Shown here piece after piece: positions 1 to 3,128 of a stretch of 3,128 nt of DNA. The notes below the pieces were generated by a model. That model saw only the letters and a list, made by a program, of their open reading frames with translations. It ran no database searches and was not told where the DNA came from. The stretch lies in sequence record AF466696.1. One strand, written 5' to 3'. This stretch comes from Escherichia phage Mu. Every line of letters starts with the position of its first letter. Position 1 is the first letter of the stretch. A program made the translations under genes and the position numbers.

Positions 1-40
1 TTATCCAAAACTCGGTTTACAGGAAACGGTAAATCAGGCT
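1..40. repeat. Left terminal inverted repeat; nt 1..25 is a Gin/Pin/Cin-type crossover site that is 1 bp short (TTATCCAAAAC-TC-GGTTTACAGGAA)
   Basis: Identical to the reverse complement of 3088..3128 except for one missing C in the outer half-site. The site has internal dyad symmetry (TTATCCAAAACC versus reverse complement TTCCTGTAAACC) around a central TC dinucleotide, as in hix/gix sites as I recall them. Confidence 0.85.
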
Positions 41-1019
41 AGGAACGCCGTGCAAAAGAATGGCGATACCTTGTCCGGTGGGCTTACTTTTGAAAACGAC
101 TCAATCCTTGCCTGGATTCGAAATACTGACTGGGCAAAGATTGGATTTAAAAATGATGCCGACAGCGACACTGATTCATACATGTGGTTTGAAACAGGCG
201 ACAACGGCAATGAATATTTCAAATGGAGAAGCAAACAAAGCACCACAACAAAAGACCTGATGAATCTTAAATGGGATGCTTTGTCTGTTCTTGTCAATGC
301 CATTGTAAATGGCGAAGTCATATCAAAATCAGCAAACGGCCTCCGTATTGCTTATGGTAATTACGGATTCTTTATTCGTAATGATGGTTCAAATACATAC
401 TTCATGTTGACAAACTCCGGTGACAACATGGGGACTTATAACGGATTAAGGCCATTATGGATTAATAACGCTACTGGCGCTGTTTCGATGGGGCGTGGTC
501 TCAATGTTTCAGGGGATACACTTTCACACCGTTTTGCTATTAACAGCAGTAATGGTATGTGGATTCAGATGCGCGATAACAACGCTATCTTTGGGAAAAA
601 TATAGTTAACACTGATAGCGCTCAGGCGTTGCTTCGCCAGAATCACGCCGACCGCAAATTTATGATTGGCGGTCTGGGAAATAAGCAATTTGGCATCTAC
701 ATGATTAATAACTCAAGGACAGCCAATGGCACCGATGGTCAGGCGTACATGGATAATAACGGAAACTGGTTATGCGGTGCTCAGGTCATTCCGGGAAATT
801 ACGCCAACTTTGACTCCCGCTACGTGCGTGACGTTCGGCTGGGAACTCAGTCACTGACTGGCGGCTTGTCTCGTGATTACAAGGCGACATCCGGTCATGT
901 TATTACAGGTTTTCATACCAATGGCGACTGGGAAATGCAGGGGAGGGGATGACAAAGTTTATATCCGTCCGGTTCAGAAGAATATCAATGGTACCTGGTA
1001 TAATGTAGCGAGCGCCTGA
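2..1019 (+). CDS. stf: Side tail fibre protein, variable C-terminal (receptor-binding) module A; 5'-partial (constant part lies upstream of the window), with an apparent frameshift near the 3' end
   Basis: The frame is open from nt 2 through the left crossover site ([33 protein letters not shown]...) to TGA 950..952, 317 codons; the ORF-track entry 50..952 is the GTG-initiated part of it. Composition is Gly/Asn/Thr/Ser-rich, typical of fibre distal domains. A conserved fibre tail [23 protein letters not shown] is encoded 948..1019 in another frame and ends 2 nt before the tfa ATG, so the body is cut off at 952. Confidence 0.8.
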
Positions 1020-1021
1020 TT

Positions 1022-1552
1022 ATGATGCATCTGAAAAACATTAAGTCAGAAAATCCAAAAACTAAAGAGCAATATCAGCTAACAAAGAATTTTGATGTTA
1101 TCTGGTTATGGTCCGAAGACGGGAAAAACTGGTATGAAGAAGTAAATAACTTTCAGGACGACACCATAAAGATTGTATGCCACGAAAATAATATTATTGT
1201 TGCCATAACCAAAGATGCCTCTACGCTTAATCCCGAAGGCTTTAGCGTCGTTGAAGATTCCAGATATAACAGCCAACCGCCGCGCTGATGATTCATGAAA
1301 GTAAATGTTTAATGATGGGAGCTGTAATTAAACGGATTTATACGGCAGACGAACAGCAACAACGAGCCGAATCACAAAAGGCCGCATTGCTTTCCGAAGC
1401 TGAATCAGTCATCCAGCCGCTGGAACGCGCTGTCAGGCTGAATATGGCGACGGATGAAGAACACGCACGACTGGGAGTCATGGGAACGCTACAGTGTTCT
1501 GGTCAGCCGTGTGGATACGGCAAATCCCGAATGGCCACAAAAGCCTGAATAA
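1022..1552 (+). pseudogene. tfa: Tail fibre assembly protein (Tfa/U family) A, apparently disrupted by three frame changes
   Basis: ORF 1022..1288 begins [24 protein letters not shown]...DGKNWYEE...NPEG, which resembles the Tfa N-terminus of E. coli cryptic prophages (TfaE-like, from memory). The middle of the protein (..[50 protein letters not shown]) is in the frame of ORF 1288..1548. The expected C-terminus [26 protein letters not shown] is back in the first frame and ends at TAA 1550..1552. Frame changes fall at about 1253..1261, 1288..1330 and 1471..1480. Confidence 0.75.
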
Positions 1553-1557
1553 AAATT

Positions 1558-1577
1558 AAGGCCCGATAGCGGGCCTT
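1558..1577. terminator. Probable bidirectional factor-independent terminator hairpin between the convergent tfa genes
   Basis: AAGGCCCG-ATAG-CGGGCCTT forms a perfect 8-bp stem with a 4-nt loop. On the - strand it is followed by a T-run (complement of AAAAATTAA at 1551..1559); on the + strand it is followed by a weaker CTCTCATTCT tract. It sits 5 nt after the tfa-A stop and 3 nt after the tfa-B stop. Confidence 0.5.
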
Positions 1578-1580
1578 CTC

Positions 1581-2112
1581 TCATTCTGGTTGTTCTGGAA
1601 ACGTTACTGGCAGGCTGGAGGTGTCTGTGGATTCGACCTTCTGCGCGTAGAACATCCACTCTGTTAATTTTTGTTTATTCTCGTCGGAAATGATGCCCAG
1701 CCGTAGCCTGTGAGTCCCATAGCTGTGTTTTATCCCTGACGAACTGTAGCAGGCTTTGCTTTTCATTTTCCGCTTGTTGCCTCTGCTCTTCCTCGGTATA
1801 AGTTCGCTTTATCACTACACCATCTTTGAAACATCCATTTACCCGAAATATCAGCCCGGCGATATTGCTGTAATATCAGGAAACCTCAACGACGTTTGCG
1901 CCTTCTGGATTAATTGCTGAAACATCCTTTTCAATACAAATAATAACGCCGTTGTGGTCAGACCATTTTCAACGTATCAAGCTGAAAGTTCTTTTGTTCC
2001 TCATACCAGTTTTTCCCATCCCCTGTATAAAGCCATTTGATGTTAAATTGTTTCGTTAGCTGGTATTGCTCTTTTGTTTTAAGGTTGCCAGCAGTAATAT
2101 TTTTTAAATCAT
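1581..2112 (-). pseudogene. tfa: Tail fibre assembly protein (Tfa/U family) B, disrupted by multiple small indels
   Basis: The ATG at 2112..2110 sits 2 nt after the stf-B stop but is followed immediately by an in-frame stop (ATG ATT TAA), consistent with 1 nt lost from an ATG CAT TTA AAA AAT start. Tfa segments are spread over several frames: [50 protein letters not shown] (ORF 1958..2185), then DHNGVIICIEKDVSAINPEGANVVEVS*, then FKDGVVIKRTYTEEEQRQQAENEKQSLLQFVRDKTQ, then RLGIISDENKQKLTEWMFYAQKVESTDTSSLPVTFPEQPE* (ORF 1581..1766). These are homologous to tfa-A on the + strand. Confidence 0.75.
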
Positions 2113-2114
2113 AA

Positions 2115-3126
2115 TTAAATACTCCCCGCGTTATACCACGTTCCATTAATGCAATACTGAATTGGCCTTGCCTGAATTGTATCAATTAATTCATCACGGT
2201 TTCCGTTACTGAACCCGTAACGACATAACCTGACCTGTCAGACCAGCCGGGACCATTCCATGTCTGAACAGATGACAGACCGCCAAGACGAATACCTGTA
2301 ATAAACCTTGAGTTACATTCTGCCTGCGTATATGCACCAACATCTCCCGCTGATGGCTTACGTGTTGTGGTGTAAATTTCTGACCAGTCAGCTTCGAATC
2401 CGTAACCATCACGCGCTGAACGATAAAAAATACCGCCGTTCCTGTAATTCACACGGCTGTACGGCAGGGCAACTCCCCGTATTCATATTGAAGTGGAGGA
2501 TTAATGTCGGCAGGGCAACTCCCCGTATTCATATTGAAGTGGAGGATTAATGTCGATGCGCCACCAATATTTGCGTTATAGACCCCGCTATTCCAGTTCC
2601 AGCCAACAGCTTTATCATTTCCGACAGTGCTTCCTGTTTGTCCTAAAGCAAATGCAGGCTGCTGGTTTTTCGTGTTGTAGTCTCGTCGCCAGCCAGGAGC
2701 ATAAGCATCACCATGATTAATATAAGTGAATTGAGCGTTAGTGATTCCGCCGCCGCTGGACGTACTCGGCGTAGTAACGCGTATGGTCATTGCGCCGCGA
2801 GTGCCAATAACTTCCACCACAGCACCTGCATGACAAATATTTCCGCAACCTGTATCTGTAATGACCTTATTGTTTGCATAAGCCCATGAGCCTTTGCACA
2901 TCCAGTAAGGATGGTTAAATGCCCCCTGACTCTCCAGCCACGAAATAAATTGTGCGGTTGTCCAGACCTGACTATCGCCACCAATATTCAGCCATGCGCT
3001 ATATGCGCGACAGGCCCCAATATTTTTGGTGAAGGTATCTTTTCCTGGAATATCTGCGCCGTTCTGGTTTTGCTGTAATGCGCCAGAAGCCTGATTTACC
3101 GTTTCCTGTAAACCGAGGTTTTGGAT
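2115..3126 (-). pseudogene. stf: Side tail fibre protein, variable C-terminal module B; 5'-partial on the - strand (would join the upstream constant part after inversion), disrupted by a 46-bp tandem duplication and frame changes
   Basis: On the - strand the frame is open from 3126 through the right crossover site ([81 protein letters not shown]..., continuing as ORF 2449..2901) to TGA at 2449..2451, 226 codons. Coding continues in a second frame as ORF 2186..2452 (NYRNGGIFYRSARDGYGFEADW...SGYVVTGSVTETVMN*). The conserved fibre tail ..[23 protein letters not shown] is in a third frame, ending with TAA at 2115..2117. Confidence 0.8.
2462..2555. repeat. Perfect direct tandem duplication, 2 x 46 bp (units 2464..2509 and 2510..2555) plus 2 flanking matching nt, inside stf-B
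   Basis: GCAGGGCAACTCCCCGTATTCATATTGAAGTGGAGGATTAATGTCG occurs twice back to back with 100% identity. On the - strand the two copies are read in different frames (..TLILHFNMNTGSCPA then DINPPLQYEYGELPC), and the frame stops at 2449 shortly after. Confidence 0.95.
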
Positions 3127-3128
3127 AA
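3088..3128. repeat. Right terminal inverted repeat; nt 3103..3128 is a full-length 26-bp crossover site (TTCCTGTAAACC-GA-GGTTTTGGATAA)
   Basis: Reverse complement is TTATCCAAAACCTCGGTTTACAGGAAACGGTAAATCAGGCT, matching nt 1..40 with one extra C. It shows the 12-2-12 half-site architecture typical of serine DNA invertase sites. Confidence 0.85.

Follow-up and report, generated by a model that had tools for sequence, protein, structure and literature searches.

Insertions and stops that break gene U in a copy of the phage Mu invertible G segment are probably not a real feature

The 3,128 bases analyzed here, which we call the window, are in their entirety the invertible G segment of phage Mu. 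By megablast they are 98.6% identical to Mu over 100% of their length (NC_000929/AF083977, 31954-35037), and the same full-length match of 98.6% is made to the Mu prophages of 11 complete E. coli genomes, including W, LY180, KO11FL and S17-1. Its first base opens gix-L and its last base closes gix-R, so that the ends of the window, beginning with TTATCCAAAAC and finishing with GGTTTTGGATAA, are the outer ends of the terminal inverted repeat. The annotation of NC_000929 places here the variable part of S (gp49), U (gp50), the opposed genes U' (gp51) and S' (gp52), and both boundaries of the G segment, with gin starting in Mu 67 bp past the right end of the window. The layout is that of a G segment, with opposed cassettes, Sv-U on the + strand and U'-Sv' on the - strand, lying between terminal inverted repeats. 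The inverted-repeat pair 7-40 / 3088-3121 is 34 nt in length and 97% complementary. The features are collected in Table 1.

Table 1. Features of the window, with coordinates counted from its first base
Feature	Coordinates	Strand	Basis or comment
Left inverted repeat with gix-L	1..33	+	Mu alignment, inverted-repeat pair, NC_000929 boundary annotation
Sv, variable C-terminal part of tail fiber gene S (gp49)	12..1019	+	tblastn, mapped annotation
Gene U (gp50, Mup50; 'tfa-A' of the earlier note), tail fiber assembly chaperone	1022..1552	+	97.5% DNA identity to Mu U
U segment 1, M1-E78, frame of 1022	1022..1255	+	Three-frame translation, tblastn
Insertion 1, extra A (single A in Mu becomes AA)	1254..1255	+	Mu GTTGAGATT, window GTTGAAGATT
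U segment 2, I79-G99, frame of 1023	1257..1319	+	Translation; holds two stops
Insertion 2, extra G (GG in Mu becomes GGG)	1317..1319	+	Mu GATGGAGC, window GATGGGAGC
U segment 3, G99-L150, frame of 1024	1318..1473	+	Three-frame translation, tblastn
Insertion 3, extra G (GG in Mu becomes GGG)	1473..1475	+	Mu ACTGGAGTC, window ACTGGGAGTC
U segment 4, E151-E175 and TAA, frame of 1022 again	1475..1552	+	Three-frame translation, tblastn
GC-rich hairpin between convergent U and U'	1558..1577		Terminator-like (- strand scan)
Gene U' (gp51), chaperone used in the G(-) orientation	1581..2112	-	Mu alignment, tblastn
Sv', variable part of S' (gp52)	2115..3115	-	Mu alignment, tblastn
46-bp unit CGGCAGGGCAACTCCCCGTATTCATATTGAAGTGGAGGATTAATGT in two tandem copies, 100% match	2462..2553		One copy in Mu and all relatives
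Right inverted repeat with gix-R	3095..3128	-	Identical to Mu

Mu is functional in both orientations of the segment. In the G(+) orientation U is a tail fiber assembly chaperone of 175 residues that is co-expressed with the fiber protein S; it folds the S fiber, and remains bound to S in the G(+) phage. After Gin-mediated inversion U and S are replaced by U' and S'. The use of gp49/gp50 and gp51/gp52 in the G(+) and G(-) orientations has been summarized (PMC11915804), as has the mechanism of Gin and gix (PMC3575834). The hairpin between the convergent genes U and U' contains no difference from Mu, and rho-independent terminators are annotated in the corresponding position of the D108 record.

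On the evidence of its sequence, the gene called tfa-A in an earlier note on this DNA is gene U of phage Mu. It lies directly downstream of its tail fiber gene, starting 2 nt past the end of S as it does in Mu, and is 531 nt in length compared with 528 nt in Mu. If the three inserted bases are taken out there is a frame of 175 codons, the product of which is identical to Mu gpU at 167 of 175 positions. This repaired product matches PDB 5YVQ_B, 'Tail fiber assembly protein U', with E = 4e-108, and belongs to the Pfam family Caudo_TAP (PF02413), scoring 111 bits where the curated cut-off is 22.1 (E = 5.8e-32).

As written in the window, U has no uninterrupted frame of ~175 codons. Global alignment of the window with NC_000929.1 31954-35037 was used to place the lesions, which divide the gene into four segments lying in three frames, with two in-frame stops. 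Each of the breaks between the segments is a one-base insertion, and the three fall within 1253..1261, 1288..1330 and 1471..1480, where the earlier note had expected them. That note had further claimed that the start and stop codons share a frame, and they do; the net change is +3, and segment 4 is back in the frame of 1022. Its description of the N-terminus, middle and C-terminus as each being in a different frame captures the splitting of the gene, but there are four segments, and the last 25 codons have returned to the first frame. The account of tfa-A as split by insertions is right as to the three +1 events but incomplete, in that segment 2 also contains two nonsense substitutions that went unmentioned there. 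These convert GGA to TGA at 1296-1298 (G92*) and TGG to TAA at 1302-1304 (W94*). Three-frame translation and tblastn with Mu gpU resolve the gene into these four segments and show no single continuous frame.

Of the ten codon changes in U, two are synonymous, six missense and two nonsense. Translated from its usual start, the gene runs to a TGA at 1286-1288, giving a product of 88 aa, and this N-terminal fragment would be the sole possible product of the gene as it stands. The other of the two longest ORFs is one of 86 aa (1288-1548), whose residues 11-62 match Caudo_TAP.

The damage extends over the whole segment. Compared with Mu the window has 23 substitutions and ~16 indel events, and tblastn reveals frameshifts in four of the four genes. 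The indels comprise nine single-base insertions (a T at 34-37, and those at 940, 1254, 1317, 1473, 1707, 1829, 1864 and 1881) and a duplication of 46 bp, versus six deletions (a C in the left gix, a G at ~36, AT at 1959, GTGC at 2107, A at 2207 and AA at ~2456). With 10 insertions to 6 deletions, the earlier impression of a cassette dominated by insertions, with at least two small deletions and the loss of 1 bp from the left crossover site, is borne out. The events are distributed as 6 in U' (532 bp), 4 in Sv, 3 in Sv' and 3 in U (531 bp).

In Sv an extra G at 940 converts GGG to GGGG and moves the last ~25 codons into another frame. A tblastn search with S accordingly returns residues 170-480 at 11-943 and residues 479-504 at 939-1016 in a different frame, and the ORF of Sv ends prematurely at 950-952, downstream of the insertion. 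Gene U' carries the insertions at 1707, 1829, 1864 and 1881 and the deletions of AT at 1959 and GTGC at 2107, with a net change of -2; it is damaged even more than U. In Sv' an A is deleted at 2207 and AA at ~2456, and 46 bp are duplicated perfectly in tandem. The junction of this duplication has only 2 bp of homology (CG) and lies 5 bp downstream of the AA deletion, and the two together give a net change of +44 that shifts the frame of S'.

The crossover sites differ in their state. The right site, gix-R, is that of Mu, while gix-L lacks a C next to the center of the site (position 10/11) and is thus 25 bp in place of 26. It reads TTATCCAAAA-CTCGGTTTACAGGAA, with TTATCCAAAA-CTCGG at its center, where the Mu site is TTATCCAAAACCTCGGTTTACAGGAA. 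Were this loss real, the altered spacing of the half-sites should prevent inversion by Gin. Immediately interior to the left repeat of 34 bp, positions 34-40 of the window read TCAGGCT, which is the sequence of the interior of the right repeat (3088-3095), where the left interior of Mu reads CAGGGCT; the inverted repeat is thereby extended to ~40 nt. Two errors, a mix-up between the ends or a short tract of conversion could each account for this change.

We find these lesions in this copy of the segment and in no other sequence searched. The copy in E. coli W is identical to the Mu reference over all 3,084 bp and that in S17-1 differs from it by a single base, so it is not the reference that stands apart. 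Among 5,426 complete E. coli genomes, 50,697 phage records and 72,556 plasmids, nothing is nearer to the window than Mu itself. Insertion 1, the extra A, is absent from Mu, D108, P1, SfMu and P88 and from the E. coli W and S17-1 copies. In a multiple alignment none of the indels of the window recurs in Mu, D108, P1, SfMu or P88, the sole apparent exception being a gap at the end of the alignment, at gix-L of P1.

Four 26-28-mers specific to the window, covering the three insertions in U and the junction of the duplication, were scanned, each against one or two of IMG/VR, GTDB genomes and JGI metagenomes. The first-insertion 26-mer was found in neither IMG/VR nor the GTDB genomes, and its Mu version is present in IMG/VR. 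The junction of the duplication (GGAGGATTAATGTCGGCAGGGCAACTCC) was found in neither IMG/VR nor the JGI metagenomes, the second-insertion 28-mer gave no match in the JGI metagenomes, and the third-insertion 27-mer none in the GTDB genomes. None of 15 ORF products of the window, alternative starts included, was returned by exact look-up in a collection of 15 billion proteins. The collections are large rather than exhaustive, GTDB representing each species by a single genome and the E. coli set being limited to complete genomes. Full-text searching of the literature, aimed at a legacy sequence of the G segment or at frameshifts described in it, brought up only general papers on Mu.

The window base is also found in a relative at 4 of the 23 substituted positions (887, 956, 989 and 1463). 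This is about the level expected by chance at variable sites, and polymorphism common to the relatives was therefore rejected as the source of the substitutions. Site 887 (Mu 32841) varies among true copies of Mu, being C in the reference and E. coli W, T in S17-1, and A in the window, D108, P1 and P88; it may be among the few genuine polymorphisms in the window. Three unrelated substitutions each create a new ATGA, namely CAGGA>CATGA at 1296, AAGGA>AATGA at 1313 and CAAGA>CATGA at 2831.

The main rival to the explanation that we favor below is real decay. The window would then be a Mu-derived prophage remnant in a living genome, its G segment without selection and its inversion locked by the 1-bp loss from gix-L. 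Cryptic prophages with broken tfa and stf genes are common in E. coli. Every frame and one cis site are broken here, as expected of a defective prophage, and a remnant free of all selection could in principle gain frameshifts in every gene. Moreover most of the single-base insertions (seven of nine) copy an adjacent base, which fits slippage by a polymerase. The statistical character of the changes nevertheless makes decay unlikely.

Indels are in excess. Natural relatives at a divergence of 5-8% have none in U and U'. Over the two genes together (1,144 bp), D108, P1, SfMu and P88 each differ from Mu by 78-93 substitutions and 0 indels, and an IMG/VR relative of 95.1% identity shows 100 mismatches with 0 gaps across 2,058 bp. 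The window differs from Mu in the same two genes by 16 substitutions and 9 indel events (Fisher p = 6e-12 versus the relatives). A neutral baseline was taken because the relatives are under selection. In E. coli mutation-accumulation studies indels arise at ~0.1 of the rate of substitutions, and at that ratio 23 substitutions predict ~2 indels. The ratio in the window is ~0.7, and the probability of at least 16 indels for spontaneous mutation is ~3e-9. Insertions are favored over deletions, opposite to the deletional bias found in bacterial pseudogenes.

The position of the indels is also at odds with decay. Not one of the 12 single-base indels touches a homopolymer run of at least 4 nt, of which there are 45 (13 of them at least 5 nt); all lie in runs of 0-3, and slippage is most frequent in the long runs. 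A longer run steeply raises the rate of replication slippage, and likewise that of the homopolymer errors made on pyrosequencing, semiconductor and nanopore instruments. With every single-base indel outside the long runs, slippage and platform homopolymer errors therefore fit poorly, and we disfavor natural slippage as well as the homopolymer errors of 454, Ion Torrent and nanopore reads as their source.

The substitutions show a marked asymmetry between the strands. Read on the + strand, 11 of 23 are G>A versus a single C>T (p = 0.006), with a span of 956-2176, and 9 of these 11 are AG>AA. G is the base replaced in 15 of the 23, although it makes up 22% of bases (p = 1e-5). The G>A bias continues unbroken across U, a + strand gene, and U', a - strand gene, and an 11:1 asymmetry over genes of both orientations is not what decay would give. 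By their sequence context none of the G>A changes is at a Dcm site (CCWGG), which removes deamination at such sites as their source. Sites that vary among the relatives account for 8 of the 23 substitutions compared with a background of 23% (p = 0.21), a share no larger than random placement would give; for the substitutions of the natural relatives the figure is 62-97%, a range inflated by their shared ancestry.

Lastly, the events are unevenly spread. Positions 1179-2207 hold 27 of them and the remaining 2,099 bases 12, corresponding to 26 versus 5.7 per kb (p = 4e-6), and six are packed into 1296-1327. A 4.6-fold variation in density is not expected along DNA that should all be neutral. Neither an intermediate nor a sister copy was found in the collections searched. 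In its indel share, insertion bias, avoidance of runs, strand asymmetry, uneven density and private lesions, the window departs from the signature of natural decay.

We consider it likely that the lesions in U, together with the ~34 other differences from Mu, are errors of sequence determination, assembly or record transcription rather than mutations that arose in a living element. What is established here is which locus this is, where each lesion lies and of what kind it is, that among the sequences searched the lesions occur in this copy alone, and how they behave statistically; it is from these points that we infer a technical cause. The earlier note had left the choice between biology and error open, holding that equal indel density in neighboring genes would point to error. 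Within the window the indels run through U', Sv and Sv' as well as U, and gix-L is hit too; by that argument the lesions point to sequencing error. Furthermore, damage to S, U, U', S' and gix-L together would leave a phage unable to infect in the G(+) or the G(-) state and unable to invert the segment; Mu is capable of infection and inversion alike.

The source of such errors was likely a low-accuracy read of Mu DNA, a legacy one or some other, with the center derived largely from one strand. A context-dependent confusion of G and A on one strand has the look of a systematic fault of read-out, as might arise, for example, in a single-strand gel read where G was told from A by lane intensity. 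The central region (1179-2207) behaves as though it came from a read of poorer quality, and we prefer variation in read quality as the explanation of the density pattern because uniformly neutral DNA should not show it. The 46-bp duplication resembles an overlap joined wrongly or a line entered twice.

Deliberate or experimental alteration seems quite unlikely to us, whether as an engineered construct, a mutagenized copy such as a chemically induced laboratory derivative of Mu, or a sequence corrupted in silico. The window starts and stops precisely where the gix repeats end on their outer sides, as an engineered copy might, and the clustered, one-strand G>A changes, with six events in 1296-1327, recall the co-mutation produced by alkylating agents. 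Such agents do not make 16 indel events and a 46-bp duplication, however, and a phage with all four fiber genes broken could be neither selected nor propagated. Random changes introduced in silico would not yield a bias specific to the context AG>AA. A diversity-generating retroelement was also considered and rejected, as its mutagenesis is adenine-specific and free of indels, and here there are 16 indels and all of the genes are affected.

It is very unlikely, in our estimation, that the lesions are real in the stronger sense of an inversion-locked fossil of the G segment, shaped by an unusual mutational process in which single bases go in away from homopolymer runs and AG turns into AA, the latter on one strand only. 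If they were, an error-prone step of single-strand copying would be a candidate for that process.

Programmed recoding, in which ribosomal frameshifting through the three frame changes would generate full-length Tfa, is excluded: the start and stop of U share a frame, and other tail chaperone genes of phages, lambda G/GT among them, do use programmed frameshifting, but three successive shifts would be needed, there is no X XXY YYZ slippery heptamer at 1254 (TTGAAGA), 1317 (ATGGGAG) or 1473 (CTGGGAG), the TGA at 1296-1298 and the TAA at 1302-1304 stand in frame inside segment 2, the insertions occur in 0 of the 7 intact homologs aligned, and all annotated homologs of U are single CDSs of 528 bp.

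The frame breaks in U are thus probably not a real feature. On the reading of technical error that we favor, the same cause as in U probably lies behind the damage to U', the base missing from gix-L, the 46-bp repeat and the 'insertion-biased decay', and any inferences about pseudogenization of a tail fiber cassette, a disabled gix, decay biased toward insertions or a 46-bp repeat would rest on what are most likely errors of the record. The underlying biology is the known one of Mu, at a textbook locus, and the main value of the analysis is as a flag on the quality of the record of that locus. Should the lesions be real after all, they would mark the cassette of an ordinary dead prophage whose spectrum of mutations is odd.

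It is useful to set the window beside natural systems. The tfa and stf genes of the cryptic prophages e14, Rac and Qin of E. coli K-12 are interrupted by frameshifts and stops. Natural decay of that kind is expected to be dominated by substitutions, biased toward deletion, symmetric between strands and common to related strains, and the window shows none of these properties. The same architecture, with chaperones of the Tfa family PF02413, is found in the C segment of P1/P7 (Cin), the G segment of D108, SfMu, P88, the B segment of Shigella (PinB) and the P segment of E. coli e14 (Pin), and the DNA of these related invertible cassettes is 89-93% identical to the window. In D108, P1, SfMu and P88 both U (528 bp) and U' (534 bp) are intact and have no indels relative to Mu. 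The window is much nearer to Mu, whose gene U (NP_050654.1; PDB 5YVQ chain B) occupies the same locus with the same gene order, the same 34-bp inverted repeats and the same intergenic hairpin. The identity is 98.6% for the DNA of the segment, 97.5% for the DNA of U and 167/175 for the repaired product, and the window differs in the three +1 insertions and two nonsense codons in U and in the 13 further indel events in the rest of the segment, the 46-bp duplication and the base lost from gix-L included.
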